This document shows, piece by piece, positions 45,318-62,612 of a stretch of 64,000 nt of DNA. Under the pieces are notes generated by a model. That model had not been told where the DNA came from and did not search any database. It saw only the letters and a list, made by a program, of their open reading frames with translations. Made by a program: the position numbers and the translations under genes. This stretch comes from a virus, in the IMG/VR virus record IMGVR_UViG_3300021368_000005, positions 9,614 through 73,613 of that record, one strand, 5' to 3'. Positions within the stretch are counted from its first letter, which is position 1, and each line of letters starts with the position of its first letter.

Positions 45318-46379
45318 TTAAATTAGGGTTGTTTTTTCCTCTATAAATTCATGTAAATTATGAAATGTCTGAGGAGCTGGTAAGAACTCATTGGCGTGTT
45401 TTATAAAGTCTTTGTGATTTTCGTGAGTTGTATCCCACACATTATGTTTATCAAATTCTTGTGGAGTAAAAGTTCCCCAATTATTTATCTTACCATAAAA
45501 CACTTTTGTTTTCTTCTTGAAGATACTCATCATCAAGTCATAGAATATTTTCATTTCCATGTAGTTATGATTCTGAACAACGAATGATGTTTTTACACTA
45601 TTTAGTGTTCTTATTGTAGAAATAAATTTTAGGTTATCAATTAATTCATTCCATTTACCATTTATTCTTGTTTTATTTTCATAAGTATCTTTAGTTCCAG
45701 CATCAATACTTATTTCACATGATTTGACAAATCTATGTATGTTTGGCATAGAATCCCACATTTTTTTATTCCAATAAGTTGCGTTGGTATGTAAGTGAAT
45801 TCTTTCTAATTTAGGATACTTAGATGTATCAAAGTTTCTTAAATAATCTCTAAACCCAACTGATATAAATGGGTCTCCACTTCCTGTTATGTATATTACT
45901 TTTACTGATGAAGCATAATCATCCTCTATTTCTTGGATGGTTGCTTTAACAGTTTTTATTTTATTACTATCGGCAATAAACATTTCAATTCTACAAGAAG
46001 GACATGCCAAATTACAACTTCTATCAAAAGAAAATTGTATTGTTCTTGGTGCGAATTCTATATCCTTTTTATGTTTATCTACTTTCTCTTGAACCTCATC
46101 TGGTAAGAATCCTTTTCGATATAAAGGTCTGTGTTCTTTTACTCCCTTTGGTATAGCAAGTAAAAATGGACACTGTTGTTTATCACAGTATTTATAAGAA
46201 CCATCTATTATAGAATCTCTTATATCTTTAGCAACATCAGAATTAAAAGATTCTCGTGCACTCATACCCTTTGGAAGATGTTTAGTTAACCAAGAAGGGC
46301 AACATAAAAAACTTCTAAAGTCATGTACTTCAATTCCATCAAATGGAACTGCACAAATAAAATCTTTATATTCACTCAT
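45318..46379 (-). CDS. Radical SAM protein with N-terminal SPASM/twitch-like Cys cluster
   Basis: CNLACPSC, ITGSGDPF, HTNA, ISIDA; N-terminal C..PF...CC...C...C. Confidence 0.88.
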   Translation of the reverse strand: MSEYKDFICAVPFDGIEVHDFRSFLCCPSWLTKHLPKGMSARESFNSDVAKDIRDSIIDGSYKYCDKQQCPFLLAIPKGVKEHRPLYRKGFLPDEVQEKVDKHKKDIEFAPRTIQFSFDRSCNLACPSCRIEMFIADSNKIKTVKATIQEIEDDYASSVKVIYITGSGDPFISVGFRDYLRNFDTSKYPKLERIHLHTNATYWNKKMWDSMPNIHRFVKSCEISIDAGTKDTYENKTRINGKWNELIDNLKFISTIRTLNSVKTSFVVQNHNYMEMKIFYDLMMSIFKKKTKVFYGKINNWGTFTPQEFDKHNVWDTTHENHKDFIKHANEFLPAPQTFHNLHEFIEEKTTLI

Positions 46380-47041
46380 TACGAATATTCGTTTAGTAAT
46401 TTTAATAACTCATCGAGAGCTTCATGTCTATGATTATCTTGTAAAGATACAGAATATACATATTGTGATGATTTGAGTTTTGGTACATCATGTACTGCAG
46501 AATCATTTGAAAACTTCAAATCTATTTGTTGAGGGTCACCTGTAAGAACCATAGTAGAACCTTTACCCAACCTACCCAATACCATACCAAGTTGTTGTTT
46601 AGTTAGATTTTGAAACTCATCTACAATCACACAAGCGTTATCAAATGTTCTACCTCTAAAGTGAGATAGTGATACTAACTCAATGTTTTCATCCGATTCC
46701 ATCTTCTGTAATATATCAGGTTTGTTATAAACCTTTCTCATATTAGAACGAATCGGTACTAACCAAGGCTCCATCTTTTCATCTAATGAACCTGGTAGGT
46801 ATCCATTATCTTCGTTTGATACTGTTGGTCTTGTTATAATGATTTGATTTATCTGTCTTGTAAAAAACATATCTAATGCAACTTGTACCGCTAGTAAGGT
46901 TTTTCCACTACCAGCTTTACCCAATATAAAATTATATGGGTGATATAAGATGTTTGCTTTAGCATCTTTTTGTTCTTCTGAAAGAGTTATTGAAAATTTT
47001 ATTTTACCTTTTGGTGCCTGTTTACTCATGTTCTGTGCCAT
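46379..47041 (-). CDS. phoH: PhoH-like ATPase
   Basis: GKAGSGKT, ITRP, GYLPG, RGRTF, DEFQN, RLG, GD..QID. Confidence 0.93.
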   Translation of the reverse strand: MAQNMSKQAPKGKIKFSITLSEEQKDAKANILYHPYNFILGKAGSGKTLLAVQVALDMFFTRQINQIIITRPTVSNEDNGYLPGSLDEKMEPWLVPIRSNMRKVYNKPDILQKMESDENIELVSLSHFRGRTFDNACVIVDEFQNLTKQQLGMVLGRLGKGSTMVLTGDPQQIDLKFSNDSAVHDVPKLKSSQYVYSVSLQDNHRHEALDELLKLLNEYS

Positions 47042-47576
47042 TTTTTTCCTTTATAAAATTATGATTAGTGAAACCGTTTCTATAACATAATTGTGCAGAT
47101 GCTCGATTCCAATCATCTGAGTAAAGATACATTGTGTCTGTATTCGTTGAATCGAAACTATATTCAAATCCTTGTCTATAAAATATCATTGCAGAATTAC
47201 CTCTATCTGGTTTGTGCTTTCTACTTACCAGAGCTCCTCCAATATAAATTTCATTTTCGTTTATATCCTGATAATGAGATTTCCAATCAACAGTTACACA
47301 ATTAGTATTAGTCCAATGCCATCCTAAACACTTTTCTTCATACATCCATAAATGACATTGTGAACCAAACTCCAACCTTTCATAAACTATTTCAGGAGTT
47401 GGTGTACCATCCCATTGTAAATCTTCATGGTGATACTCGATTGATTTTTTTATGTGATTTAAGTTTTGGGAAAAGTTATCTGTTGATAGTGTATTGAACC
47501 AATATCTATTATCAAACTTATGAGGACGTAGATTATGTTTATATAATCTAAATTGAACTATGTTATTTATATTCAT
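47022..47576 (-). CDS. GNAT-like acetyltransferase
   Basis: C-terminal YLYSDDWNRASAQLCYRNGF, the GNAT N..S....GF motif. Confidence 0.6.
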   Translation of the reverse strand: MNINNIVQFRLYKHNLRPHKFDNRYWFNTLSTDNFSQNLNHIKKSIEYHHEDLQWDGTPTPEIVYERLEFGSQCHLWMYEEKCLGWHWTNTNCVTVDWKSHYQDINENEIYIGGALVSRKHKPDRGNSAMIFYRQGFEYSFDSTNTDTMYLYSDDWNRASAQLCYRNGFTNHNFIKEKNGTEHE

Positions 47577-47619
47577 AAAGTAACTTCTTTACTAATATAA
47601 ATATTATACTATTTTTTTA

Positions 47620-48126
47620 TTATATGATAGAGTTAGTTTTTAGATGTTTTGTTTCATCGAACCACCAAAAAACAGCAACTTCTCTATAACCATTTTTTAT
47701 TTCTCGTACTTCGTGCATATCAGTACCACCATTATAAGTTATATATTCTTTCTTACTTTCAAATGGAACAAATTTATTATTGATATAAAACTCCCCACCT
47801 TCCAATTCAATTGATTCCAACATTATAACAAGAGTAAATGTAGATTTATCATAATGAGCTTTTGTTTTTGCATTTGGAGAATACTGTATTTTATGCATTG
47901 TTACAATATTATTCTCATCTTGATTAACCAATTCACTAACAAATTTTTTAAGTTCGGTATTATCTAAACTATAATAAGTCATTTTATGATGACCACCAAC
48001 ATATCCCTTTGTTTTGTAAACACCAGGTGCTGTTTCTTTTAATTCTTCGTATTCTTTAGGATTAGATATTTTAGCGGAGTTTAACAAATCTTTCAATTTG
48101 TTATATTCTATATCAGTTAGTTTCAT
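47620..48126 (-). CDS. 2OG-Fe(II) oxygenase
   Basis: HYD...T.VI.L...EGGEF...HEV..I..G.R...V.W. Confidence 0.8.
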   Translation of the reverse strand: MKLTDIEYNKLKDLLNSAKISNPKEYEELKETAPGVYKTKGYVGGHHKMTYYSLDNTELKKFVSELVNQDENNIVTMHKIQYSPNAKTKAHYDKSTFTLVIMLESIELEGGEFYINNKFVPFESKKEYITYNGGTDMHEVREIKNGYREVAVFWWFDETKHLKTNSII

Positions 48127-48135
48127 TATAAGAAA

Positions 48136-48516
48136 TTAAATTACCTTTTCTCTGTACTTTCCATTTAGAGGAATCCCTCTTCTGATTGCCTCTAAATCAG
48201 ATAAGAACCAATCTATATCTGCACACTTTTCGTAGTTTTCTTGTTTTTCAAACCATCGTAGACATATAGTTAGAAATTCTTTGAATTCTTCATTTGGGAT
48301 TCTAATAACTGCACCAGCATTTGGATGAATTACCATCACCAATTCTTTTTTACCTAATTTAGAAGCTTTGTGTATTTGAGATGATATCTGGTCAAGAACT
48401 TCATTTCCTCTAGATTCCAAAAATGTTTTTGCTCTAGGATTCTCGTTTACATCTAAGTATCTTCTCCAATTTACCGTACTAAATGCTGTTGCTCTTTTCA
48501 TACAATTACTGTTCAT
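48136..48516 (-). CDS. Hypothetical protein with ENYEKCA (UVR-like) motif
   Basis: FEKQENYEKCADI. Confidence 0.5.
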   Translation of the reverse strand: MNSNCMKRATAFSTVNWRRYLDVNENPRAKTFLESRGNEVLDQISSQIHKASKLGKKELVMVIHPNAGAVIRIPNEEFKEFLTICLRWFEKQENYEKCADIDWFLSDLEAIRRGIPLNGKYREKVI

Positions 48517-49417
48517 TAAATGATGTTATTGGAGCATAACTATTTTTTTGGTCTATACCTGTTATAACATCATCAAAGTTTAATCCCATTGGTTGGTCAT
48601 ATGATATAACAGAGAATGGTTGAATTCCACTTCCTCCACTTGATGGTGCAATTCTTATAGTATCTCCCTTAACATTATTACTATTATCTGATGATTTAAT
48701 TCTATCAGTTAACTTACCTCTACTACGCGAAAAGAATCCACCTCCTTTACTTTTTGGTGCTGGTCTAGGAACATCTCCCTTCTTAACTGTAATTGGTTTC
48801 GGTTCTTCTGCTTCCACTTTAATTACAGGTTCAGGTGGTTTGGGTTGTGTAATTGTTGGTGGAGTTGATATAGTAACCGAGGTTGCTGTTGAAATATCTT
48901 CAAATGTTTCAAACTCCAAACCAGGATATTGACCAGAAACATCTAAATCAGGTGAATAACTAGTAGTGAATATACTAAAGCTTCCAATACTTTGTGGAGC
49001 CAAAACAGTATCAGTTGTGTTTGGATTGAAAAAATCATTTAAGTAAGTTAATACATCGGTTACTGTTGTAATTTTTCTAGTTACAGCAACTTCCGCATAT
49101 CTAGTTCGTGTTGTACCACCATGAACAATAACATCGGGTTCTTGTCTAGTTACAGAACCCAATGTAACACTTATAGTTGGTATTGTACTTTTAGATATAT
49201 AAGGGTTACCTAATCTTTTTAGTGAATTTAGATAACCAGCATCTGTGTATGCGGCTCCATTTATTTTTATAATTATTCCATTTAGGTATGGATAATTGAC
49301 ACCACTAATCCCTTCAAGTCCATCGTTTCTTACAGACCCTATTGAACCAAGTGGTCCTCTTAATGAGTTTCCACTATATGTTCCATACTGATTCGTTATG
49401 TCAGATAATGATATCAT
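48506..49417 (-). CDS. S/T/P-rich hypothetical (possibly virion) protein
   Basis: Composition like the structural proteins; TATTTATT motif directly upstream. Confidence 0.5.
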   Translation of the reverse strand: MISLSDITNQYGTYSGNSLRGPLGSIGSVRNDGLEGISGVNYPYLNGIIIKINGAAYTDAGYLNSLKRLGNPYISKSTIPTISVTLGSVTRQEPDVIVHGGTTRTRYAEVAVTRKITTVTDVLTYLNDFFNPNTTDTVLAPQSIGSFSIFTTSYSPDLDVSGQYPGLEFETFEDISTATSVTISTPPTITQPKPPEPVIKVEAEEPKPITVKKGDVPRPAPKSKGGGFFSRSRGKLTDRIKSSDNSNNVKGDTIRIAPSSGGSGIQPFSVISYDQPMGLNFDDVITGIDQKNSYAPITSFNEQ

Positions 49418-49604
49418 ATACTAATAAATATAGGGAAAACTAATTACTTGGTAAGTTCGTGAAAAGCTTTATGAATGGAGTTGTGTGTATCTAGTGAAGA
49501 GTCATCTTCTCTAAATTTTTGTGCAAGTTCCCAGACCTCTGTTCTTATTCCGAGTGAATGGGATTTGTATAGGATTTCTTCTGTGATTTTTTCATTTGTC
49601 ATAA

Positions 49605-50063
49605 CTACATACCTGCAAAAGAATCATCGTAAAATTGTACATTAACTCCTGCCTCCTCTAACATTGACCAACTTCTTTCGTAGTTTTCTTCCCAATGTGA
49701 GCCTTTAGTAGTAACACCTCTTTCACAAAAAATTCTTGTTATACCTGAGTTTATAATTCCTCGTGCACAATCTGAACAAGGGATTCCACAACTGAGATAC
49801 ATTGTACAATCTTTGGTTGATACTCCAATTCTTGCTGCATTATAAATAGCATTTCTCTCAGCATGTTCAAACCAAAAATACTTTTCTGGCCTTTGTTGTC
49901 TTTCTTTTTCGTTATCCTTTAATCCTCTTGGAAATGAGTTGTAACCAGTAGATACAATTTCCTTATCCTTACCAACAATGATTGCACCGATTTGTGTGTT
50001 CTCATCTTTGGATTTAAGTTTGACTGTGTGAGCCAATGTTCTAAAATATTCTACCCATCTCAT
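49605..50063 (-). CDS. dCMP deaminase
   Basis: SKD..TQIGA, TGYN.FPRG, HAERNAI, PCSDC. Confidence 0.92.
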   Translation of the reverse strand: MRWVEYFRTLAHTVKLKSKDENTQIGAIIVGKDKEIVSTGYNSFPRGLKDNEKERQQRPEKYFWFEHAERNAIYNAARIGVSTKDCTMYLSCGIPCSDCARGIINSGITRIFCERGVTTKGSHWEENYERSWSMLEEAGVNVQFYDDSFAGM

Positions 50064-50590
50064 ATTATATAACTATCTATGTTTTTATTTTTTATTTTAT
50101 CTACTCTAAGTCTATTATTTGAATTTGTATCAAAAATATCTTCATAATAAGTTATGGGTATTGAGGTTTTTTCAGATAAGGAATTCAAATATTTATTAGA
50201 TTCAGTTATGTGATTTAATGCATGCTTAATATTTGGTAATGATTTATATTCATATTTATCATACCAGTTATTTGTCCAAAGAGCGCTTGCATATGATTCT
50301 GAGGCTTCTTTTGTATTTTTTCTTGATAATAAAATTACTTCATCAAATTCTTTTACAAAATCTATTGACCATTCTAGCCATCTATCATAATTAATTTTTT
50401 TAGAATAAGTGCCATCTTGTCCTACAAGTAATTTAACAACAACATTTTTTTTATCACTAGTATATAAGTTTTTTTCATATGCCCTATAACTAAATGGTTC
50501 GAATATATGTTCTAAATTTTTTTCAGAAGAAATGGATTTCATTAAAGAAGTAGAGCCAGACCTTGGTACTGATATTATTAATACTTTCAT
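50060..50590 (-). CDS. Sulfotransferase-like protein
   Basis: ISVPRSGSTSL, EPF, L.R.N...S, YEDI. Confidence 0.7.
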   Translation of the reverse strand: MKVLIISVPRSGSTSLMKSISSEKNLEHIFEPFSYRAYEKNLYTSDKKNVVVKLLVGQDGTYSKKINYDRWLEWSIDFVKEFDEVILLSRKNTKEASESYASALWTNNWYDKYEYKSLPNIKHALNHITESNKYLNSLSEKTSIPITYYEDIFDTNSNNRLRVDKIKNKNIDSYII

Positions 50591-50598
50591 ATATATAA

Positions 50599-50814
50599 CT
50601 ATATTAGTTTAACTATTTCAGCATCTTCTATTTCATTACAAAAGATAAATAAGTTTAATCTGTTAGATTTGAATACGATATCACACCCCAACCACTCCTT
50701 TACTGCCTGTGCATTTAGAACTCGTGTTATTGGATATCTAGCTACAATTTGATATGGGGTTTGGTTTATATATTCTATGGGACCACATTTATCAGGATAC
50801 CTACCAGTTCTCAT
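50599..50814 (-). CDS. Hypothetical protein
   Basis: 71-aa coupled ORF. Confidence 0.5.
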   Translation of the reverse strand: MRTGRYPDKCGPIEYINQTPYQIVARYPITRVLNAQAVKEWLGCDIVFKSNRLNLFIFCNEIEDAEIVKLI

Positions 50815-51377
50815 TACACAAATTTATTTTCACGAACCCATACAATTAATATCCACTTTTCACCTTTAGTAACAGGTAAACCAGCATGTTCTGATTCGGC
50901 TATCCCCATTCCATTTTCATAATTTAACCAACATATAGCTTTTCCTAATTCTGGTTTAACTACTTTTTTTAGTTGAGGAAACTCAGTTGCACCACCTTCA
51001 AAATCATCATTTAAGTAAACTAAAAAAGAATGTGTTCTATTTCCAGATTCACCGATTTCAACGTTCTCATCAACACTATCTTTAGAAAAAAAATCATGAT
51101 GAATTTTATACTCACCCCCCACATCATATTTTACGATATGAAGTTCTTCTTGATTTTCAATTGGGGTTTGTGTCAAATAAGATACTTGTTTTTTTATTTC
51201 ATCTAAATAAGGTGAATCTATATCACCCAACCAACAAGAGTTAGCAACTCTATATCCTTCTATTTCCTCACCAACAGTACCAGCCTCTTCTAACTTAGTT
51301 GATGCAAGTCCAATTAAGAAGTCACACCATTGTTTAGAAAAAAACTTAGGATACTGTACTAATATGTTAGATTCCAT
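50814..51377 (-). CDS. Prolyl 4-hydroxylase-like 2OG-Fe(II) oxygenase
   Basis: E.L.IVKY..GGEY..HHDF...NR...LVYLND..EGG.T.FP...P..G.A..W.N...HAGLPV..GEKW...W.R. Confidence 0.88.
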
Positions 51378-51393
51378 AATAATAAATTATTTA

Positions 51394-51479
<86 letters not shown>

Positions 51480-51521
51480 TACCTTTGAATTACCAAATAG
51501 TAAATTGTGTTTTAATATTAG

Positions 51522-51595
51522 AGCCTTTGGAGGGACTCGAACCCACGACCTGTTGATTACAAATCAACTGCTCTAGCCAGCTGAGCTACAAAGGC
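51522..51595 (-). tRNA. tRNA-Thr(TGT)
   Basis: GCCTTTG acceptor, GTTGA-TTTGTAA-TCAAC, GGTTCGAGTCC. Confidence 0.95.
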
Positions 51596-51601
51596 GTTTT
51601 G

Positions 51602-51940
51602 TTAGAAGTTTTGTCTTAGTGCCAAAAAATCATCTCTCATTTGTTGTACCTCTTTTAGTAGTTCTTCGTTTGTTGGAGGTATTCTTTCCATAATAGATTT
51701 TGTAAGTATATCTAATTTATTTATTGTATCTTTTTTTATATTGGTTTCAGTATCAACAATAAATTGATTTAACTCTAACAAATCATTATTAATTCTTAAA
51801 TGAGTTTGTTGGTCAGTTATAGATATTCTATTATTCGTTTCTATATGTAAATCTTCTACTCTTTTTTGTAGTTTATATATTCCTCTTGCTAACAAAATAC
51901 ATGAGGTAGATAAAAGTACTATTGCTATTGTTGTAATCAT
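51602..51940 (-). CDS. Membrane-anchored hypothetical protein
   Basis: N-terminal TM plus helical body, between tRNAs. Confidence 0.55.
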   Translation of the reverse strand: MITTIAIVLLSTSCILLARGIYKLQKRVEDLHIETNNRISITDQQTHLRINNDLLELNQFIVDTETNIKKDTINKLDILTKSIMERIPPTNEELLKEVQQMRDDFLALRQNF

Positions 51941-51954
51941 AATTTATAATTTAG

Positions 51955-52026
51955 TAGCCCCTAGGAGAATCGAACTCCTCTTTCCAGGATGAAAACCTGG
52001 CGTCCTAACCGATAGACGAAGGGGCC
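51955..52026 (-). tRNA. tRNA-Glu(TTC)
   Basis: GGCCCCT acceptor, CCAGG-TTTTCAT-CCTGG, GTTCGATTC. Confidence 0.93.
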
Positions 52027-52496
52027 AAAATTTTCTTCTCAACTGATTGAAAAGAAAACTTAAGTAGGTAACTGAAAAACAAATCACCTAATATAGAGTT
52101 TATAAAGAAGGGTAATGCCATTGTATAACAAAGTAAAAACCCTTCCAATGTTTTAGGGTAACCACCTAACCAAACTCCAAAGTTGGTGATTATGAAAAAT
52201 ATTAGAGATGATATTAGTACGTTGTGTACTTTTATTTTTTTCCAATATCTACCCAATAAACTTATTAATAAAAAAGAACCATAAACCCATAGTGTAATTC
52301 CATAGAATCCTAAATAGATATCTGATAGAACCATTGCTATAAGTGGTAGGGATATTCCCAACCATTTGTTCTTGAAATTTGTTGAACCAAATAAAGCCAA
52401 TGCTGTGATTGGTGTAAAGTTTGGTGGATGTGGTAATAATCTTACTAACACAGCCACAACAACAAATCCAATAAGTAATAGTTCTCTTTTATTCAT
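52005..52496 (-). CDS. Integral membrane protein, DUF6580/ECF S-component-like putative transporter
   Basis: RLLPHPPNFTPITALALFG...SD...FFIITNFGVW...CY.MALPFF.N. Confidence 0.7.
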   Translation of the reverse strand: MNKRELLLIGFVVVAVLVRLLPHPPNFTPITALALFGSTNFKNKWLGISLPLIAMVLSDIYLGFYGITLWVYGSFLLISLLGRYWKKIKVHNVLISSLIFFIITNFGVWLGGYPKTLEGFLLCYTMALPFFINSILGDLFFSYLLKFSFQSVEKKILAPSSIG

Positions 52497-52501
52497 ATAT
52501 T

Positions 52502-53380: not shown

Positions 53381-53405
53381 AATTACATTAATTTAGTTAA
53401 TGTAG

Positions 53406-53479
53406 TGGAGAATATCGGAGTCGAACCGATGACCTCTTCGGTGCAAGCGAAGCGCTCTAGCCATCTGAGCTAATTCCCC
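53406..53479 (-). tRNA. tRNA-Ala(TGC)
   Basis: GGGGAAT/ATTCTCC acceptor with G3:U70, CTTCG-CTTGCAC-CGAAG, GGTTCGACTCC. Confidence 0.95.
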
Positions 53480-53516
53480 TTCGAGTATATAAGTATATAT
53501 AACTTATATTCTTGAA

Positions 53517-54344: not shown

Positions 54345-54361
54345 TTGTTTGTAATGATTTA

Positions 54362-54393
54362 CAAATATACGAAAAAAATATTAGAAATACAAG
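54362..54393 (-). promoter_or_regulatory. Early promoter, canonical TAnnTTTG
   Basis: TTGT-N17-CGTATATTTG. Confidence 0.7.
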
Positions 54394-55682
54394 CAGTAAT
54401 CCATATATTTTTTATATTTGCTAATTTGATTAGTATCTGGTTTCCACTTTTCAATAGATTCATGGAAATCTCTAGTTATTATAACATCTAGCTTTTTAGA
54501 ATGCATTTGATAAGCTAGTTTGAAATTGTGGTCAATATTATCTTTATTTTCTTTTAGAAGTTGTTGTATTTCATCATCTGATAAATTTGATAATCTATCT
54601 ATCTCTTGACAAAACATATGTATCTTTCTTTTAAGATGAGGTTGATGTATGTATTCATAATTGATACCTGTCATTTCATATTTGAATCCTATATCATTTA
54701 TAAAGTCAAATGTTTTAGAATTCATGAGAACCATTGGTAGTTGTTTCCAAAACATCGGCTTAAATGTTTTCTCAGTAACAAATATAGAATCCTCTCGTAG
54801 TGATGATTCATTTGATATCCATAAATAAGAATCTCCATTTAGAGGTGTTTTCCTTGTATTAGGTATAACCTTAACTACACCCTCATTCAATGTATCTTCA
54901 CCAACACTCATATTGTTAAGATATCTGTACATAGATTCTCCATCTCTAACATTGAAATACTGTTCTAAATAAAACTGTGCTCTTTCTTTAATGAATTCTT
55001 TTGATTCAGTTTCTATTACCTCTTCTGTTTCATTTTCTCTATAAGGAGCAAATACATTCATTATATTTTCCCTATTGATAATATTTGTTTTAGATAATGA
55101 ATATGTAAGATAAGCTCTTTCAGGACAAATTCTTCTAAACAAAGAAGTTGAGAAATACTTTCTTTTAGTGTTGATTATAGTTTCTGCAGAATCTCCTTGG
55201 CCTGATTTATCAGGATACTCAGGTGCATAATGTGTCCACACTTCCCAATTAGAAAAAAATGGAAAAGGTTCGTGGTTGTTTTTTTCAGCAAGGTCTTTTA
55301 ACAAATCACCTACTATTAAATCATTAGATGAAATTCCTAAATACTTTATTCCATTGTTTACTTTTAGATTATAAAAGTCAGTATAAAAATCTCTTAACAA
55401 GGGAGCTTCTGAATAGAATGATATTATATATTTTAATGGAATATCATCATTTGGGAAATTAGGATTTTTATTTTTATAATGGTGAAGTATGGCTTCTATA
55501 AAATAATATTCATTTGATTCTAATCTAGGTCTTAATGATGATGTACCAATAAGTATTTTAATATCAAAGTAGTAAGGATGTCTATCAACTGTAACTCTTC
55601 CTTCTTTATGATAACCTCTTTCTTCAAATAATGAAATGGCCTTTCGCCATCCAATATATCTATCCTTGAACTCGTAATCCAT
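54381..55682 (-). CDS. Putative glycosyltransferase (GT10/fucosyltransferase-like C-terminal domain)
   Basis: ES....FVTEKTFKP.....P......GF...HN motif resembling the GT10 Y/F-x-TEK signature. Confidence 0.45.
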   Translation of the reverse strand: MDYEFKDRYIGWRKAISLFEERGYHKEGRVTVDRHPYYFDIKILIGTSSLRPRLESNEYYFIEAILHHYKNKNPNFPNDDIPLKYIISFYSEAPLLRDFYTDFYNLKVNNGIKYLGISSNDLIVGDLLKDLAEKNNHEPFPFFSNWEVWTHYAPEYPDKSGQGDSAETIINTKRKYFSTSLFRRICPERAYLTYSLSKTNIINRENIMNVFAPYRENETEEVIETESKEFIKERAQFYLEQYFNVRDGESMYRYLNNMSVGEDTLNEGVVKVIPNTRKTPLNGDSYLWISNESSLREDSIFVTEKTFKPMFWKQLPMVLMNSKTFDFINDIGFKYEMTGINYEYIHQPHLKRKIHMFCQEIDRLSNLSDDEIQQLLKENKDNIDHNFKLAYQMHSKKLDVIITRDFHESIEKWKPDTNQISKYKKYMDYCLYF

Positions 55683-56044
55683 TATATCATTGTTGTATCT
55701 TGCTTTCTAGATTCAAAATTTATATCATCATGATTCTCAATATCTAGAAGTATTGTATATATGTTGTTTGGGTCATCTCCTTCGAGTTTATTAACTTGAT
55801 AACCATTCTTAAATCCAACAAGAGTAGGTAACCCTTCCATTCCCCCAACGAAATCTCTACTCCAGTCTTGAGTATCAGGATTTGCATAATAGAATTGATA
55901 TTTTGGATTATCATTTGAAGCCTTTTCAAATTTTGGTTTAAGTTTTCTACAATAACCACAACTACCTTTTCCAAACATTACAATAACCTTTGAATTCTGT
56001 TGAACTATTTTTTCTAAATCATCAAGTACTATTTCTTTATACAT
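55682..56044 (-). CDS. Thioredoxin
   Basis: CGYC active site, P.F, GLPTL..FKNG; start reassigned to MYKEIV. Confidence 0.85.
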   Translation of the reverse strand: MYKEIVLDDLEKIVQQNSKVIVMFGKGSCGYCRKLKPKFEKASNDNPKYQFYYANPDTQDWSRDFVGGMEGLPTLVGFKNGYQVNKLEGDDPNNIYTILLDIENHDDINFESRKQDTTMI

Positions 56045-56582
56045 TTTCCTTTTCCCAATTAGCAGGACACATACCACCCTTTGTATCATTAAATATTTGA
56101 GCATCAATTAATCTTATGATATCATCAATTTTTCTACCAATGTACATATGATTAACTGATTGGTGAAATACTGTTCCATCTTCGTTTATAAGGTAAGTTG
56201 CTCTATATGTAACATTATCTTCATCATCACAGATATCTAGTAACTCAGCAAGTTCTCTTTTTGTATCTGATATCAATGGATATTCTACTCCTTTTATACC
56301 ACCATCATCTATATCAGTATTCAACCATGCAAAATGTACATCTGTTGTATCACATGATGCTCCATATACAAGTACGTTTCTTTTTTCTAGTTCATTAATT
56401 GATTCTTGTAATGCTATCAACTCGGTTGGACATATTGTTGTAAAATCTTTTGGATACCACAGTAGTAGTATTTTCTTTTCTTTATACTTGGCTACTTCTA
56501 CTAAACTTTCTTTAGATTCATCACCTAAATAATCAACCATCTTTACTTTGATGTTTGGAAATTTTTTACCTACTAAATTCAT
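56037..56582 (-). CDS. ahpC: 2-Cys peroxiredoxin (AhpC/TSA)
   Basis: YPKDFTTICPTE, S.D...H.AW, RATYLI, GR, MCPANW. Confidence 0.93.
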   Translation of the reverse strand: MNLVGKKFPNIKVKMVDYLGDESKESLVEVAKYKEKKILLLWYPKDFTTICPTELIALQESINELEKRNVLVYGASCDTTDVHFAWLNTDIDDGGIKGVEYPLISDTKRELAELLDICDDEDNVTYRATYLINEDGTVFHQSVNHMYIGRKIDDIIRLIDAQIFNDTKGGMCPANWEKENV

Positions 56583-56611
56583 ATTATTAAATATATTGTT
56601 TTTTATTTTTT

Positions 56612-57223
56612 TTAATCAACCCAACTCATCAATCTTGTTTCTTCTACATCATGTAGAACAATTGTTTTATCTGTAATTTTACTATCGTAGAAATATTCAT
56701 ATCCAAACAAAGCTACATCGGTATCACAATTTTTAATTATTTCATCGGAAAATAAACCACATCCATTTGCCCAATATTTATCTTTGTATGTATCTAAACA
56801 AAGATTCACAATTCGTGAGTTGGGTGTAGAGCCATATACAGTACAATCTATTAGTGTTCTATATTTTGTTGTTGGTTTCATTCCTGAAAAGAATGTATGT
56901 TGTTCGTTTAGTTTCTTTAGTATTAAATTAAATGATTGAATCGGATTACAATCTATATCAACATAGATACCTCCATAATCTCGTAACAATAATAATTTAA
57001 TTCTATCTGTAATATATGCCCATTTATATAGTGCAGGAGCCTTTATATATTCTTGTAAAAAAACATCATCTTTATATAATTCAAATATTTCATTTCCCCA
57101 TAACTTATACTCATAATCGGAGTTTACATCTTGTATTTTATTTGTAAACTCTTTGCAGTGTTCGGGTATATCTTCTTCACCAATCCATATTTGATGAATT
57201 TTTTTTGGTATTTTTGAATTCAT
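56612..57223 (-). CDS. Glycosyltransferase family 32 (DXD)
   Basis: IPKKIHQIWIG, D.I.L.LL..YGGIYVDID. Confidence 0.88.
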   Translation of the reverse strand: MNSKIPKKIHQIWIGEEDIPEHCKEFTNKIQDVNSDYEYKLWGNEIFELYKDDVFLQEYIKAPALYKWAYITDRIKLLLLRDYGGIYVDIDCNPIQSFNLILKKLNEQHTFFSGMKPTTKYRTLIDCTVYGSTPNSRIVNLCLDTYKDKYWANGCGLFSDEIIKNCDTDVALFGYEYFYDSKITDKTIVLHDVEETRLMSWVD

Positions 57224-57408
57224 ATTGCAAGGTGAGGTAATTTCTCATGTAATCTTTTCATATGTTTACAAGGAGTATATCTTCTAAATCCTCTTGCTGG
57301 ACATTCACAATCATCTATAACATAATCAGTAACTCTTACTTGGTAGTACTTAAGATTACCTTTCTTATCTCTACTACCCATTTCTCTATAATACCAACTA
57401 TTTGTCAT
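57220..57408 (-). CDS. SWIM zinc-finger protein
   Basis: Y.V...CECP..F....CKH. Confidence 0.7.
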   Translation of the reverse strand: MTNSWYYREMGSRDKKGNLKYYQVRVTDYVIDDCECPARGFRRYTPCKHMKRLHEKLPHLAI

Positions 57409-57724
57409 AACCTACAAAATCATATAGAACTGGCTCAACCAATCCTTGTTTAACTGCATATGGATATTCTTCATTCAACCAATAGTTCTGAACAGTTTCA
57501 ACTTCATGGTGAACATCTTGATAAAGGTCATCGATACTATATCCACCACCATATTTGATACCACCACAAAGAACCATCAGTTCATTGAGTTTATCGAAAT
57601 CGTTTTGGTATTTAACAATTGATTTGATTATGTTTTCTTTCATCAAATCTGCTACCTTGTCATTGTAATCATACATTTCTTTTGACCAAGGTTTTGTTAC
57701 TTTAGGTTTTATTAGTACATTCAT
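57398..57724 (-). CDS. Early hypothetical protein
   Basis: Directly behind a promoter repeat. Confidence 0.55.
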   Translation of the reverse strand: MNVLIKPKVTKPWSKEMYDYNDKVADLMKENIIKSIVKYQNDFDKLNELMVLCGGIKYGGGYSIDDLYQDVHHEVETVQNYWLNEEYPYAVKQGLVEPVLYDFVGYDK

Positions 57725-57732
57725 ATCTTAAT

Positions 57733-57784
57733 TATTTACATAGTAAATATACGAAAAAAAGCCGAGACTGCCAAATATTTTAAC
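57733..57784 (-). repeat. Early promoter repeat (GCCGAGACTG type)
   Basis: TATTTAC-ATA-GTAAATA-TACG-A7-GCCGAGACTGCCAAATATTTTAAC. Confidence 0.8.
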
Positions 57785-58001
57785 TAATAATTATACACCC
57801 TTGATTGTAGGATGGTATCATATATTTGAAGTCATGTTTATCCAAAACATCTTCTATGATTCTATCTTGGAGTGGCTTTGAGTTACCTGTAATAATTGTA
57901 CATTGGAAAAAGGGGTCTATCGATTTTCTAAGAACGAAATCTTCTGTTATCAATACCGCCTCATCATGAGTCATTCCATGTAAATCTATCTCATTCATCA
58001 T
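57780..58001 (-). CDS. Stand-alone Smr-domain protein
   Basis: IDLHGMT..EA, IITGNS, N.G. Confidence 0.75.
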   Translation of the reverse strand: MMNEIDLHGMTHDEAVLITEDFVLRKSIDPFFQCTIITGNSKPLQDRIIEDVLDKHDFKYMIPSYNQGCIIIS

Positions 58002-59188
58002 AATAAAGTTGTTTTTGTTTTGTTTATAAAATTATATTGACTTAACAGTTTATACTGTTCTAAACTAAATGCGGTATCTTTTATTATAGTATTAAATTTA
58101 CTTTCAGATATATCCGATATCTTCCCATTATCATCTAATAATTTTTTTAATTGCTTTGTTAACTTTACCGATTTATATCTTTTCCAAAATTCAGTATCAT
58201 TTCTATCACATACATAATGATATCTAATAAAACTAAGTGTTGATTTATAAACATTATTCACATAATCATTAAATGCCTTTCTATTTGTAAAGTTTAATTC
58301 TACTATTTTTTTTATTTGCATTAAACAAATCATTATAGATGTTGCTTCGATTGGTTCAAAGAAGTGTGAACTCATTCCAACTACAATAGTATTTCCAACC
58401 CATGTCTTGTTATAATAACCAGATTCAAACTCATAGTATCTCTTAAACTCAACATCACCAAATCTTTCTTTTATTTCAGATTTACATTCATCAATAGTTG
58501 TTAATTTGTTATCATGGAGGTATCCATAATTTTCTCTATCTTGTAATGGTATCTTAAAACACCATCCATTTTTCATTGATGTTGCATCTGTTCTTTGTGG
58601 TTCACCTTTTGGTGTAATCTTCGGTATAGTAAAACTGAGTACTGAATTAACTCTAAGTTCATCTGATGTTGATATCCACTCTTCATTAAATTCTTTACCA
58701 AATGTTATTCTACTAATACCACTACAATCAATTAAGAAATCACAATTATATTCGGCTGATTTTGTCTTAACTTTGTTTATCGTTTCACCATCTCTATCAA
58801 ATCCAACAACATCATCTATTATGTAATTTATTTTATTACTAAATTTATTCTTAAAATAATCACAAGCTTGATTCGTATCAATATGATAAGCGTGTGGATT
58901 ACCTCCATTGATGTTAAAATCATGATTGTATTCAGAATCATCACCAGCCCATCCTTTGAATGTAATTCCAATCTTTTTTGTAGAGTTTATTGAATTAAAA
59001 AAATCATCCCTATCTATATTAACATTATCTAGAAACTGTGTGAAGTTAGGAACAGTTCCTTCTCCAAATCCACTCTTAGGAATAGATGGACTTTCAATTA
59101 GAGTAATGTTATCATTATTAAAATAAGTGTATAGATAAGATGCAGCCATCCAACCAGTATTACCACCAATTATTACAAAATTTCTCAT
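57998..59188 (-). CDS. Flavin-dependent (tryptophan) halogenase-like protein
   Basis: IIGG.TGW, GEGT.P, K.GI.F.GW, AYH, DCSG, GW.F.IPL, F.EPIEATSI, HY...R.DT.FW. Confidence 0.85.
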   Translation of the reverse strand: MRNFVIIGGNTGWMAASYLYTYFNNDNITLIESPSIPKSGFGEGTVPNFTQFLDNVNIDRDDFFNSINSTKKIGITFKGWAGDDSEYNHDFNINGGNPHAYHIDTNQACDYFKNKFSNKINYIIDDVVGFDRDGETINKVKTKSAEYNCDFLIDCSGISRITFGKEFNEEWISTSDELRVNSVLSFTIPKITPKGEPQRTDATSMKNGWCFKIPLQDRENYGYLHDNKLTTIDECKSEIKERFGDVEFKRYYEFESGYYNKTWVGNTIVVGMSSHFFEPIEATSIMICLMQIKKIVELNFTNRKAFNDYVNNVYKSTLSFIRYHYVCDRNDTEFWKRYKSVKLTKQLKKLLDDNGKISDISESKFNTIIKDTAFSLEQYKLLSQYNFINKTKTTLL

Positions 59189-59192
59189 TTTA

Positions 59193-59558
59193 CTAAGATG
59201 GGTCTTTCCAAAATGTTTGTACTAGTATTATTGTAAAACACAATAATAACTGAAGGGCTATTTTAGTTGTAAACTTCTCACCAAAGAAAAGTTGTATCAT
59301 TACAGCATATACAGTCATACCAAGAGCAAATCCAACGAATCTAGCTCCCCATATACTTCCACCATATCCTTCTACATTATATCGTGTTGCTAGTATAAAT
59401 ACATAAGTAAGAGGAATTGCCAAAGCATACCATCCCCAATATGTTTCATCGTATTTAGGATACTTGAACTGTAAGTTATGTTGAAACCATGCTCCCAATT
59501 GAGCAATAATTGTTACTATCGCTCCAGCGAATATATAATACCAATTTAAGTCTTTCAT
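59193..59558 (-). CDS. Four-TM membrane protein (DMT-like)
   Basis: Four hydrophobic helices, FFGEK. Confidence 0.5.
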   Translation of the reverse strand: MKDLNWYYIFAGAIVTIIAQLGAWFQHNLQFKYPKYDETYWGWYALAIPLTYVFILATRYNVEGYGGSIWGARFVGFALGMTVYAVMIQLFFGEKFTTKIALQLLLCFTIILVQTFWKDPS

Positions 59559-59571
59559 GTTTTATTAAGTT

Positions 59572-59784
59572 TTATTTGGGATATAGAAACGTATCTATAT
59601 AATCTAATCTCATGTTTTGTAACCACTCTTTCTGAAAATCCTTATAGTAACCACTATCTAAGATATCCTCTAAACTAGTCCTTGTGGTATAGGAGTATAA
59701 AGACCAACCACCATCTATCTTATCTATCATCTTCTCTATAAAGATAATCTGCAATTCGGTTAGCCAATATTTCTTTTCTTTCAT
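59572..59784 (-). CDS. Hypothetical protein
   Basis: 70-aa ORF. Confidence 0.5.
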   Translation of the reverse strand: MKEKKYWLTELQIIFIEKMIDKIDGGWSLYSYTTRTSLEDILDSGYYKDFQKEWLQNMRLDYIDTFLYPK

Positions 59785-59787
59785 GTT

Positions 59788-60099
59788 TTATAAGTAAGCG
59801 GGTCCGTAGTAGTTCCACTTGTCAGAACCATCGAAGATATTACCTCTACTGTGTTTGGCTGGTGAGTTCCATGAAGCTGGTTTTAGTAAATCTCCTTTAC
59901 ATACCAAAGAACCTTTTACTACACCTTCCCACATAGAAACGAATGCCCATACCGAACCTTCATCAATAATCTTCATATATTTCTGTCCCTTTTTAACTGT
60001 AAGGGGAGTATAAGGTTTATGAGAATAATTTGTATCCCAATGTTGTTTTCTTTTTTGATTAACCTCAGTTAACCACATTTCAAATTTTGTATTACCCAT
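59788..60099 (-). CDS. Conserved phage early protein
   Basis: G.KY.KI...SVWAFV...GDLLKPASW..PAKH.RGNI motif, familiar from large phages. Confidence 0.6.
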   Translation of the reverse strand: MGNTKFEMWLTEVNQKRKQHWDTNYSHKPYTPLTVKKGQKYMKIIDEGSVWAFVSMWEGVVKGSLVCKGDLLKPASWNSPAKHSRGNIFDGSDKWNYYGPAYL

Positions 60100-60290
60100 A
60101 GTTAGTTTATTAAAATTGTATTAAATCAATTGCCATTTCACCAGTAGGATTACCGTCTTTAGTGATTTCATAATTAGGGTCTGAACCACTTATCATAACA
60201 TGATTGATTAACTCACCAATCGTGTTAAAGGTTTCAGTAAAATAAGAACAATCTAATGAATACATAGTTTAAGTTTTAAGTGTTATTAAT

Positions 60291-60351
60291 TATTTACATA
60301 GTAAATATACGAAAAATAAACGAGATTTCCAAGCAAAAAGTGAATTATTTT
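60291..60351 (-). repeat. Early promoter repeat
   Basis: Palindrome plus TTGG-N17-CGTATATTTA plus 23 bp shared with the 45.3-kb copy. Confidence 0.8.
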
Positions 60352-60352
60352 A

Positions 60353-61255
60353 CTACAATAAACCTCCCTTGGATGAGGTAAATGTGTTTGATATTCCAAT
60401 TTCTTCCATTAGAATTTTTACAACTGTATCGGTTGATTCTTGAAATACATCATATGAACTTAAATGAAGATAATCATATTTGTTTAACTGTTCTATTGTT
60501 ACATCTCCCAAGGGTATTAAATCATTTGATAATCTAACATACCCTCCAAAGAAATCAAAGTTACCCATTTTAGAATATATACCAACATCTATTTTATCTT
60601 TTTTTAGTAAATGATAGAATGTATATTGTTCTAGTAATTGAGAAACTCCAGCTTCTAATATATCTCCAAGTGATTTGGATTTTATAACTTCATTTGATTC
60701 AATAATATCAAGTACCTTTTTCCAATAATAAGAACCAAGTTTGGTGTTTTTTATGTATATGATATTATAGTTTGGAATAAATGAAAAATCATATTCACCA
60801 ATTTGTTCTTTTAGATTAATTCTATCATAAGGTTCTAAGTAAGCCTTTGTTAGAAAATCTATCACAGTTGGTGTAACTCTCTCTTTTAGATTAATCTCAG
60901 GATGAGAAAAAGCAAAAGATTTTTTTGGTTCTGATAACTTATTAATAATTACAGTATCTAAATCTATATGATAGAATGGTTGATTTGGATATCTCTTACA
61001 ATGTTCTAATATACCATATATTTTAGGCATAGGATAAATTACACCATCATACTTTTCTATCTCATCAACAATTATATATTCGTTAATAGGAACTTTGTTT
61101 GATTTGAAAAGCTTTTCAGTATTTGAATCACAATAAAGAATAGTATTATAGAATCGATTCGCATATGAAACAGATAATCTAGCTACATTCCAAAAGTTTG
61201 GACTTAGTTCTTTCTTATTTTGTAATACTCGTTTGTAAGAATATATAACGTTCAT
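60353..61255 (-). CDS. Putative GT-A nucleotide-sugar transferase-like protein
   Basis: LYCD, PKIY, PFYHIDLD (DxD), EQY, YLHL. Confidence 0.5.
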   Translation of the reverse strand: MNVIYSYKRVLQNKKELSPNFWNVARLSVSYANRFYNTILYCDSNTEKLFKSNKVPINEYIIVDEIEKYDGVIYPMPKIYGILEHCKRYPNQPFYHIDLDTVIINKLSEPKKSFAFSHPEINLKERVTPTVIDFLTKAYLEPYDRINLKEQIGEYDFSFIPNYNIIYIKNTKLGSYYWKKVLDIIESNEVIKSKSLGDILEAGVSQLLEQYTFYHLLKKDKIDVGIYSKMGNFDFFGGYVRLSNDLIPLGDVTIEQLNKYDYLHLSSYDVFQESTDTVVKILMEEIGISNTFTSSKGGLL

Positions 61256-61989
61256 TAAATTATTCTTCTTTTATTCAACTGTTTTTTTAGATAGTGTGCC
61301 CAATGTGTATGAGCCCACTCATTATAATGACCACCATTCCATTCAACATTTGGTTTATATTGGCAATAATCCCAATAAGTAGTGTTCTCTATATAATTAT
61401 TTTTATTTATATATTCATATAATTTTTTATCCAAAGGATGATTACCATCCCATAACTTGTTAACCCCATCATCACCTACTCCTGATATTGGAGCTTCCTT
61501 TCTAGTATTTTCCATAACATCAAAAAATATATGTGGTATTCTTAAACTATCAAGTAACGCTGAACATCTTATATGTGTTCTATATTTTTGTGCCAATAAA
61601 TCTTCGGATAGTAATTGTGGAAGTAATTGTTTGTATCTATCTCTATTCTGTCTATCCCATTCAGGATTTTCCCAAGATGAATGTAAGCTATATTGGTAAT
61701 CACCATTATCATCGAATCCATCACAAACTTCCATTCTGCCTAAACAAGTCCATCCAATAGTAACTAAATCTGGCTTAGGGTTAGTTGATAAGTAATCAAC
61801 CAAACCTCGTTCTACATACATAATACTGGCTCCACTTATTCCCCAATTATCTACCTTATCATATTCCAATAAACCTCTAAGTTTATTTGGGAAAGCAAAT
61901 TTTTTATTTTCTTCATCATACAACTTACCTGCTCCTAATATCTCTGCACCAAATGTATGTGAATCTCCTATGGAAAATAGTGTTTTCAT
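61255..61989 (-). CDS. SGNH/GDSL-like hydrolase or acyltransferase
   Basis: IGDSHTFG, N.GISGAS, IGWT..GR.E, GH....H..WA. Confidence 0.7.
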   Translation of the reverse strand: MKTLFSIGDSHTFGAEILGAGKLYDEENKKFAFPNKLRGLLEYDKVDNWGISGASIMYVERGLVDYLSTNPKPDLVTIGWTCLGRMEVCDGFDDNGDYQYSLHSSWENPEWDRQNRDRYKQLLPQLLSEDLLAQKYRTHIRCSALLDSLRIPHIFFDVMENTRKEAPISGVGDDGVNKLWDGNHPLDKKLYEYINKNNYIENTTYWDYCQYKPNVEWNGGHYNEWAHTHWAHYLKKQLNKRRII

Positions 61990-62612
61990 AATAGTGTAAT
62001 TTTTTTCTTCAAAGGTAATTTATGAAAACATACGTTTCCTGCAAGTACTATTCTATCTATATCCGAATCTTTTGCATCAAGAGGTGAATGTGGAACATCA
62101 CCATCTAATATTATTAATTGACCTTCCTCTGGCAATATACCCATTTCATTACCTTGGTCATCTTTCATAAACAACTTACCATCATCCCCTTTTAAGTTGT
62201 TCGGCATCTGAATATAAAATATAAATGTGAAATCGGGTTTTGGTTCTCCGAAATCTTTTGCCTTTTTGGTATGTGTGTGATAAATCAACGAACCATTGGC
62301 GTTTCGTATTCTCTGTTTTGGTTTAGATGCATTTATTATATTAATCCAAGCCGAAGAAGAAATGTATTCATAATCTTCTTTATATATTTCTTTACAGGTA
62401 TCAATCCCCATAAGTACGAGGTCTCCTATTCTTCCTATTCGTTTTTCTTTAATCCATTCTTCAGATTGTGAACCTTCCCAAATACCATGTCCGTCCGCTA
62501 CATCGTTAACCTTGTGTGATATCTCATACGAGGTTGTAACTATTTCTTTTATATGTTTGATATCCCATTCATATAAATAATAACTTATAGTATCACTTAG
62601 GTTTACTTTCAT
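61986..62612 (-). CDS. 2OG-Fe(II) oxygenase-like protein
   Basis: AWIN, H.H, FIFYIQMP, G.L, P.EG..I....PHS.......RIVLAGN. Confidence 0.7.
   Translation of the reverse strand: MKVNLSDTISYYLYEWDIKHIKEIVTTSYEISHKVNDVADGHGIWEGSQSEEWIKEKRIGRIGDLVLMGIDTCKEIYKEDYEYISSSAWINIINASKPKQRIRNANGSLIYHTHTKKAKDFGEPKPDFTFIFYIQMPNNLKGDDGKLFMKDDQGNEMGILPEEGQLIILDGDVPHSPLDAKDSDIDRIVLAGNVCFHKLPLKKKITLL

Follow-up and report, generated by a model that had tools for sequence, protein, structure and literature searches.

In cells, the pairing of a terminal peptide with one reader is a known principle, exemplified by encapsulins, microcompartments, peroxisomes and cellulosomes. Encapsulin cargo peptides, microcompartment peptides and the peroxisomal targeting signal PTS1 follow the same logic, a short terminal peptide carried by unrelated enzymes serving one shell or receptor, while cohesin–dockerin pairs, the docking domains of non-ribosomal peptide synthetases and polyketide synthases, and the leader peptides of ribosomally made, post-translationally modified peptides (RiPPs) with their RiPP recognition element bring many enzymes to one scaffold or substrate by means of a common element. 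Here we describe a C-terminal tail, K-x(1-3)-[ST]-[LIM]-[LI]-stop in its strict form, that is shared by unrelated tailoring and redox enzymes of a marine phage and for which we propose a role of this kind. It was analyzed in a 64-kb window (the whole stretch studied, 64,000 nucleotides, positions 9,614 to 73,613 of IMG/VR record IMGVR_UViG_3300021368_000005), which is part of a 73.6-kb viral contig, has a GC content of 31% and carries every long open reading frame (ORF) on its minus strand. To our knowledge, the tag sequences of encapsulins, microcompartments and PTS1 are unrelated to this tail, and we know of no compartment in these phages. Dockerins are folded modules of about 70 residues, in contrast to a tail of 6–8 residues in coil conformation.

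Gene islands of the kind that bears the tail are described in cyanophages: the relevant passages of Iyer et al. 2010 (PMC2938197) and Iyer et al. 2021 (PMC7824862) predict that arrays of dioxygenases and Trp-type halogenases modify peptides or glycans, and these arrays likewise combine distant 2-oxoglutarate (2OG) dioxygenases and halogenases with sulfo-, carbamoyl- and methyl-transferases. The terms "C-terminal tail", "C-terminal motif" and "C-terminal peptide" do not occur in the main text of PMC2938197, and the passages of PMC7824862 on halogenases, 2OG enzymes and Hint domains mention no shared tail. A literature search, whose coverage excluded subscription journals and supplements, returned no described terminal tag shared by phage auxiliary enzymes. 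The combination seen in cyanophages, i.e. several non-orthologous 2OG enzymes, a Trp-type halogenase and other tailoring enzymes, is found both in the window and in G001, a complete 288,673-bp relative phage genome with terminal repeats. In the window, the tailoring set consists of 2OG enzymes 47620, 50814 and 61986 (proteins are designated by their lower coordinate), halogenase 57998, radical SAM enzyme 45318, sulfotransferase-like protein 50060, and proteins 60353, 61255 and 56612.

Five window proteins end in the strict motif, at the minus-strand positions given in a preliminary description of this DNA: the radical SAM enzyme, 2OG enzymes 47620 and 61986, thioredoxin 55682 and the halogenase (Table 1). 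The looser tails listed there are likewise present, namely SKGGLL on 60353, NIDSYII on 50060, KRRII on 61255 and KKKIL on carbamoyltransferase 26265, and the core enzymes that it had set apart indeed lack the tail (MetK, FSWK; ThyA, PLSN; PhoH, NEYS; UvdE, PYIK; primase, LKGL; helicase, ANIK; dCMP deaminase, FAGM). Its label of 2OG oxygenase is supported for 61986, which gave a confident model with prolyl-hydroxylase matches; for 47620, where only a weak Pfam hit speaks for it (E 0.0044), the label stays putative. In a greedy set of 88 minus-strand window genes, the strict motif ends five ORFs versus 0.06 expected from its internal frequency (16 of 22407 positions of these proteins; Poisson 8e-9), and a bare [ST][LIM][LI] end is found five times versus 0.27 expected. 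All five strict tails are among the 30 genes spanning 45318–61986 (chance 0.004) and among 17 tailoring or redox genes (chance 1.6e-4, with classes that we assigned post hoc).

Since the window itself had suggested the motif, the decisive test is replication outside it. An alignment of short halogenases (A1) pulled 80 loci out of IMG/VR (1.07 Mb); a scan with a single halogenase sequence returned nothing. The strict motif ends 118 of the 1421 ORFs in these loci versus 1.0 expected, at most seven of the 118 being halogenases used as the search query. The distribution is bimodal: 27 loci have at least two strict tails, often three to eight each, and 48, with a comparable GC content, have none. 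G001 carries the motif on eight of 380 ORFs (0.22 expected), all of them within 16 kb (38.6–54.4 kb). A second set of 78 loci, chosen through the gene of an untagged protein family that we call fam8 and partly sharing contigs with the first set, gave 362 strict tails among 1326 ORFs, against 1.27 expected, and a looser tail on 713 ORFs; 77 of the 78 loci have at least one strict tail. The enrichment of a shared C-terminal motif on unrelated tailoring and redox enzymes, as first claimed for the window, is thus replicated in the halogenase-selected loci, in G001 and in the fam8-selected loci.

Table 1. Coordinates of tailed proteins, of an untagged contrast and of other features of the window.
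Feature	C-terminus	Position	Strand	Remarks
Radical SAM enzyme, 353 residues	EEKTTLI	45318..46379	minus	Tail codons 45321-45341; 70-nt gap past the stop; Pfam Radical_SAM, E 2.9e-6
Small putative 2OG oxygenase, 168 residues	LKTNSII	47620..48126	minus	Tail codons 47623-47643; 43-nt gap past the stop; weak Pfam 2OG-FeII_Oxy_3
Thioredoxin	RKQDTTMI	55682..56107	minus	Tail codons 55685-55708; stop overlaps next start (TAATG); Pfam Thioredoxin, E 2.7e-10
Short flavin-dependent (Trp-type) halogenase, 396 residues	KTKTTLL	57998..59188	minus	Tail codons 58001-58021; stop overlaps next start (ATGA); Pfam Trp_halogenase, E 3.9e-65
Prolyl-hydroxylase-like 2OG oxygenase, 208 residues	KKKITLL	61986..62612	minus	Tail codons 61989-62009; stop overlaps next start (ATGA)
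SGNH/GDSL hydrolase	NKRRII	61255..61989	minus	Looser tail; Pfam Lipase_GDSL
DUF6734 (glycosyltransferase-like) protein	SSKGGLL	60353..61255	minus	Looser tail; 87-nt gap past the stop; Pfam DUF6734
Sulfotransferase-like protein	KNIDSYII	50060..50590	minus	Looser tail; family tail counts
Carbamoyltransferase	IIKKKIL	26265..27971	minus	Doubtful member; G001 orthologue IVRKKIL
126-residue protein	YREKVI	48136..48516	minus	Orthologues tailed
P4H-type 2OG oxygenase	ENKFV	50814..51377	minus	Untagged contrast, no appended tail; family alignment
tRNA genes Ser-TGA, Thr-TGT, Glu-TTC, Ala-TGC (in the order reported)		51394-51479, 51521-51595, 51954-52026, 53405-53479	minus	
Copies of TTTTCGTATATTTR		4503, 29634, 31500, 37811, 43967, 44869, 45265, 54362, 57744, 60302	minus	

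A motif at the very end of AT-rich genes could be functionless, arising as a by-product of the AT-rich sequence in which translation starts, of stops that overlap the next start, or of some DNA element where cassettes meet. As the preliminary description had pointed out, three of the five strict window tails overlap the next start codon, while the stops of 45318, 47620 and 60353 are uncoupled from any downstream gene. In the tail-positive loci, overlap with the next start is also more frequent among tailed than among untailed genes (58% versus 34%), and the last Ile is written with an excess of ATA (72 of 94 Ile codons), this being the sole skewed position. The tail is nevertheless absent where such a by-product should be common: in tail-negative loci, the motif is found at none of 283 overlapping, 205 close and 323 uncoupled stops, whereas in tail-positive loci it is found at 61 of 197 overlapping, 23 of 101 close and 22 of 134 uncoupled stops. 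The position profiles of positive and negative loci differ accordingly (K at -4, 0.38 versus 0.13; S+T at -3, 0.39 versus 0.10; L+I at -1, 0.59 versus 0.16), which, with the 0/811 tail-negative genes, rules out an artefact of start overlap or A-rich initiation. AT-richness as the cause is ruled out by tail-free loci with a GC fraction of 0.27–0.32 and by a Bacteroidetes genome of 28.7% GC, whose 362 ORFs include one strict tail versus 0.42 expected and 20 loose tails versus 17.2.

The codons themselves rule out a single DNA word. The five window tails are written in differing codons, and position -3 of the 118 tails uses ACA (34), ACT (25), AGT (14), TCT (14) and TCA (10) and, more rarely, ACG (6), AGC (5), TCG (4), ACC (3) and TCC (3); Leu at -2 is written TTA, TTG, CTA or CTT in close to genomic proportions. 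Since Ser at -3 is encoded by both AGY and TCN codons, selection acts on the tail at the protein level. Together with the conservation of the tail by families over deep divergence (see below), these observations make a functionless tail very improbable. Neither of the two outcomes that the preliminary description had named as refuting its idea was observed.

A set of 190 non-identical tails, picked beforehand for having a basic residue and ending hydrophobically, gives the consensus K(-7)-x-x-K(-4)-[ST](-3)-L(-2)-[IL](-1)-COOH, with K at -7 in 48% of the tails, K at -4 in 52%, T/S at -3 in 56%, L at -2 in 72% (L/I, 91%) and I at -1 in 67% (I/L, 97%). Structural and alignment data indicate that the tail is unstructured and appended after the catalytic fold on a flexible linker of variable length. 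In the P4H-type oxygenase family, the fold ends at the strand ...RYSLVNW; tagged members have 8–22 poorly conserved extra residues past this strand followed by the tail, whereas the enzymes of tail-negative phages, and also 50814 of the window, end 6–8 residues past it. The AlphaFold2 model of 61986, built from a 24-sequence alignment, has a mean pLDDT (predicted local distance difference test) of 88 and gives P4H/PHD2 (prolyl hydroxylase) matches with Foldseek; its last strand comprises residues 187–197, and residues 201–208 are modeled as coil with a pLDDT of about 51. The short halogenases end at the point where the long cellular forms continue with more helices, so in this family the tail takes the place of a C-terminal segment and does not simply prolong the fold. 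In the window thioredoxin, the tail is borne by a 15-residue extension that is lacking in the 103-residue G001 orthologue, whose gene lies 210 kb from the island. Note that the longest thioredoxin ORF starts at a TTG codon (56107) and overlaps the peroxiredoxin gene by 71 nt; since database orthologues (record P0241, 120 residues) start at the equivalent of ATG 56044, this codon (120 residues) is probably the true start.

The tagged families have neither signal peptide nor membrane segment and therefore look cytoplasmic. The tail might still be a localization signal for a place, either the anionic inner membrane, through its lysines and hydrophobic end, or the phage head. Small membrane proteins are indeed encoded in the same operons (DUF2061, a 111-residue multi-pass protein by the halogenase, and 59193..59558 just upstream of the halogenase), and several tagged types, i.e. 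sulfo-, methyl- and glycosyl-transferases and SGNH hydrolases, act on lipid-linked glycans. However, six or seven residues of which only two are hydrophobic would make a weak membrane anchor, and positions as strict as Leu-Ile-COOH and Ser/Thr suggest binding in the pocket of a protein. As for the head, T4-type head targeting relies on N-terminal signals, and no link of the enzymes to the virion was found. We consider such a signal improbable.

Orthologues of the tagged proteins in related phages do not drop the tail. Among the 2679 database homologues of radical SAM enzyme 45318 (E<=1e-5), 115 of the best 120 (55–94% identity) are tailed (26 strict, 29 with the core only, 60 loose, five with none), with the consensus I-x-P-x-K-S-[LI]-I. 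The halogenase homologues of at most 420 residues carry the tail in 62 cases out of 65, versus 6 of 55 longer forms, none of which is strict. The 61986 family is tailed in 27 of 28 members in the first locus set and in 66 of 66 in the fam8-selected set, its close relatives ending in KKKFTLL or KKKSTLL, and the close relatives of the window (70–95% identity) retain the tails of the 61986, 57998 and 61255 orthologues. All three members of the 47620 family found by BLAST end in K..[F/N]S[IL]I.

The looser tails can be judged in the same way. Close relatives of 61255 end in NKRRII or NKRQII, and 51 of the 62 members of a related GDS-motif family (273 residues) carry a tail; so do all 21 members of the DUF6734-like family, and distant orthologues of 60353 end in KIIKNLM and KINKILM. 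The sulfotransferase-like family of 50060 has the tail in 16 of 18 members in the first locus set and in 66 of 68 in the fam8-selected set, one orthologue (KSNNTLI) being a strict match. The 126-residue protein 48136 has a G001 orthologue with the strict tail FKSKKTLI and another orthologue ending in KKIKLI. For carbamoyltransferase 26265, outside the window/G001 pair, the tail is found in 0/7 and 1/13 family members. The window thioredoxin has four orthologues (74–86% identity); of these five proteins, three end in TTMI, TTVI or TTML.

Possession of a tail is a nearly binary property of a family: in the fam8-selected loci, 14 families are 82–100% tailed and at least 15 families are 0% tailed. 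The tagged ones include at least three 2OG subfamilies, the halogenase, the radical SAM enzyme, two sulfotransferase-like families (for one, the name comes from an Atlas score of 0.97), FkbM and class I methyltransferases, GDS-motif hydrolases, DUF6734, and proteins of unknown fold of 95, 231 and 416 residues; the untagged ones include Hsp20, UvdE, DUF2061, a cytidylyltransferase-like protein and fam8. Cellular homologues lack the tail, as predicted beforehand, and so do those of cultured relatives, namely the six dioxygenases and the halogenase of HTVC008M and the halogenase of S-SRM01. In loci L003 and L105, the halogenase and the 95-residue protein end in Phe (Leu-Phe for Leu-Ile); the other tagged proteins of these loci lack this ending, which is suggestive of a lineage-specific change.

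From the motif, the selection acting on it, its conservation and its confinement to the island, we infer a single reader and a role in recruitment: the tail may quite possibly be a docking or sorting tag by which one common partner recruits the tailoring enzymes. This partner would recognize the terminal Leu-Ile with its free carboxylate, together with the hydroxyl residue and lysines that precede it, and recognition would gather a changeable set of unrelated soluble cytoplasmic enzymes at the same place or on the same substrate. We favor recruitment because of the operon context, the binary pattern of the families, the gain of a tail by thioredoxin and the exclusive co-occurrence with fam8. 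Thioredoxin is read here as having gained its tail on moving into the island, its orthologue outside the island being without the extension.

The best candidate for the reader in the relatives would be fam8, a protein of about 495 residues encoded in mid-operon among tagged genes (e.g. L002:13707-15194 (+) and G001:C1:50818-52299) and represented by 329 sequences after clustering at 50%. No other untagged family is restricted to tail-positive loci: fam8 occurs in 20 of 27 positive and 0 of 46 negative loci. It is present in all four of the large tail-positive genomes, and five tail-negative records contain no full-length copy. Its positions 287–446, in the form of a 77-sequence profile, match solved inteins and Hedgehog Hint domains (E 8e-8 to 0.008), and this domain ends in a near-invariant His-Asn. 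It is followed by a hypervariable Cys-rich peptide of about 25–60 residues, rich in Trp, Tyr and Pro, and fam8 looks like a precursor from which Hint-type cleavage would free heavily modified peptides. In one sub-lineage (L105:1488-3365 and L003:7885-9390), the one with the Leu-Phe ends noted above, a second Hint domain of canonical type comes after the Cys-rich peptide and ends in ...VHNKK (PT-HINT, E 3.8e-14). For the N-terminal 290 residues, a language model gave leads to the ATPgrasp_YheCD, TTL and ATP-grasp_3 clusters (0.88–0.89). No ATP-grasp match was obtained by Pfam or by PDB sequence search, an 18-sequence profile of fam8 had no PDB match and a single-sequence Pfam scan gave nothing. 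Within the coverage of the literature search indicated above, fam8 is undescribed.

Several observations weigh against a docking tag read by one partner, and against fam8 as that partner. No PDZ, TPR, dockerin/cohesin or encapsulin-type Pfam family was found among 86 window ORFs (E<=1e-3) and 376 of the 380 G001 ORFs (E<=1e-4 or 1e-5; the scan omitted four ORFs spanning locus boundaries). The gene for fam8 is not in the 73.6-kb contig of the window, which amounts to about 40% of the genome as estimated by CheckV, nor in the 21-kb syntenic stretches of the window's closest relatives, which keep the tails. The link with fam8 is a co-occurrence within +/-10 kb, a pattern for which synteny by itself could account; the ATP-grasp scores are below the level that the tool treats as more than a lead, and the AlphaFold2 model of fam8 is unusable (pLDDT 46.6). 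The tails themselves are not all faithful: close orthologues of 60353 end in SSESGLL, with loss of the Lys, and two of the thioredoxin orthologues have the imperfect end TTLS. Finally, the co-variation of tails within genomes is weak (1.748 versus 1.714, a value reached by 8 of 500 permutations), and the loci are mutually related.

These results support in part the reading that had been proposed. The preliminary description saw in the tail a means by which the phage recruits a mix-and-match set of enzymes to a scaffold, assembly site or capsid, with a PDZ- or TPR-like receptor to be looked for in the genome. The tail does have the properties of a shared signal, and in form it fits the class I PDZ-ligand pattern, as had been noted: it is terminal, short and unstructured, with [ST]-[LI]-[IL]-COOH, and all five strict window tails match [ST]-x-hydrophobic-COOH. 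The conserved Lys at -4 and -7, however, are outside the PDZ definition, and the PDZ or TPR receptor did not turn up in the Pfam scans. Bacterial PDZ proteins are mostly periplasmic, unlike the tagged enzymes, which look cytoplasmic. Nothing points to the capsid, and docking onto a scaffold is what we infer. The Pfam tables contain no encapsulin (Linocin_M18-type) or microcompartment (BMC) family, the sole HK97-like shell being the T4-type capsid Gp23. A tail of the kind that binds the sliding clamp (T4 gp45-type) was rejected: the family B polymerase of G001 (836–838 residues) is absent from the 28 loose-tailed ORFs. The groove of the phage Hsp20 was considered as a possible reader; Hsp20 occurs in tail-negative phages as well, and the tail is not an I-x-I motif.

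The reader could instead belong to the host, which brings in the main rival explanation, a C-terminal degron for a host AAA+ protease such as ClpXP that would make the enzymes short-lived or have them remodeled on schedule. Tags of 3–6 C-terminal residues suffice for ClpX, e.g. RRKKAI of MuA and LPF of Streptococcus mutans SsbA, according to the relevant parts of PMC5143411 and PMC8138137. Like the ClpX signals ssrA (LAA) and RRKKAI of the phage Mu transposase, the tail is a short, free and unstructured C-terminus, basic then nonpolar, and the absence of a phage-encoded receptor in the Pfam scans of the window and G001 is consistent with a host reader. On the other hand, the ClpX signals have Ala-rich ends, as opposed to the Leu-Ile end of the tail, and the near-invariant hydroxyl at -3 and the Lys spacing are foreign to known ClpX tags; there is no evident reason for a degron to be conserved on a whole enzyme operon across 34–94% sequence divergence, and a candidate host-type Bacteroidetes genome makes no use of the motif in its own proteins. 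A degron is therefore conceivable, but we think it rather unlikely. Mimicry of ssrA was discarded, the tmRNA (transfer-messenger RNA) tag of the candidate host-type Bacteroidetes being GENKYALAA, unlike the tail.

The tail could also be a substrate, an enzyme of the island acting on its C-terminal carboxylate or on its Ser/Thr/Lys residues. Among ATP-grasp enzymes, those of the TTL and RimK types are modifiers of protein C-termini, and one candidate would be the N-terminal domain of fam8, given its leads to ATP-grasp and TTL clusters and the exclusive co-occurrence of fam8 with tagged genes. But these scores are leads that no Pfam or PDB ATP-grasp match backs, and fam8 was not seen in the clade of the window; we regard this explanation as distinctly improbable.

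If docking is retained as the function of the tail, fam8 would serve the tagged halogenase, hydroxylases and sulfotransferases as scaffold and substrate alike, since the proposed scaffold also bears the presumed substrate peptide. A specific scheme, which we think unlikely as a whole, would have the enzymes dock by their K-x-x-K-[ST]-L-I ends onto the N-terminal domain of fam8, and the Hint domain later release a hypervariable, conotoxin-like peptide rich in Cys, Trp, Tyr and Pro. This would reverse the leader-peptide logic of RiPPs, where the substrate has the recognition element and the enzyme reads it: in the present case the tag would belong to the enzymes and its reader to the substrate. 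If this scheme were true, new enzymes would join the pathway by acquiring six residues.

Whatever its reader, the tail is abundant, being carried by about a quarter of the ORFs near fam8, and spans at least six unrelated folds. It provides a simple sequence rule by which auxiliary metabolic genes that act in concert can be recognized in these uncultured large marine phages. It suggests a way for phages to exchange the enzymes of a pathway, and it is a portable tag of 6–7 residues. Following it further brought to light an undescribed family of hypervariable, cysteine-rich peptides linked to Hint domains; these peptides are likely what the long-puzzling arrays of dioxygenases and halogenases produce.

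The tagged island belongs to a lineage of large T4-like marine phages, with relatives of 237–289 kb. The contig encodes T4-type baseplate and tail proteins, primase, helicase, SbcCD, ThyA, MetK, UvdE and PhoH, and its accessory region encodes many tailoring enzymes, as judged by Pfam; 56 of the 88 contig proteins have homologues in G001, in largely syntenic order. The closest match of halogenase 57998 in a cultured phage is that of Pelagibacter phage HTVC008M (31% identity), and radical SAM enzyme 45318 has no match across 50,697 phage records. Two leads point to a marine Bacteroidota as the probable host: relatives of the DUF6580 membrane protein in single-cell genomes of uncultured marine Bacteroidetes share 52–54% identity with it, and Pfam recognizes BACON domains on tail-fibre proteins of the window and G001.

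Upstream of the window on the contig, just outside it, a 2620-residue ORF (G000:C1:1268-9130, minus strand) resembles, over its first 445 residues, a 1845-residue G001 protein bearing an endosialidase-chaperone domain, a likeness from which it is predicted to be a giant tail fibre. Among the untailed genes of G001 are those for ribosomal protein S21, GroES-like Cpn10, an AAA_5 ATPase beside a 700-residue ORF (example loci for this group, L096:6186-6446, L100:5181-5480 and L102:12223-13431), NAMPT and asparagine synthase, and numerous sugar-nucleotide and glycosyltransferase genes, all of them without a tail. We take the AAA_5 ATPase and the adjoining 700-residue ORF to be CobS/CobT-like.

Four tRNA genes lie within the accessory region of the window (Table 1). 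A 292-residue protein (52502-53380, minus strand), encoded next to the DUF6580 membrane protein, has a lipoprotein-like N-terminus (...ITVSC) and long Thr/Leu/Val-rich, heptad-like repeats (TTLT..); its Pfam matches are to coiled coils only. A sequence of about 23 nt, AAAATAATTCACTTTTTGCTTGG, lies directly downstream of the stops of both 45318 and 60353, and the related word GGCAGTCTCGGCTTTTTTT is found downstream of 57780 and 45318; these are repeated terminator or promoter cassettes bordering accessory genes. Lastly, the intergenic word TTTTCGTATATTTR has ten copies with at most one mismatch (0.35 expected), all of them on the strand of the genes. The word, which resembles the Bacteroidetes -7 box TAnnTTTG, is probably part of a phage promoter.

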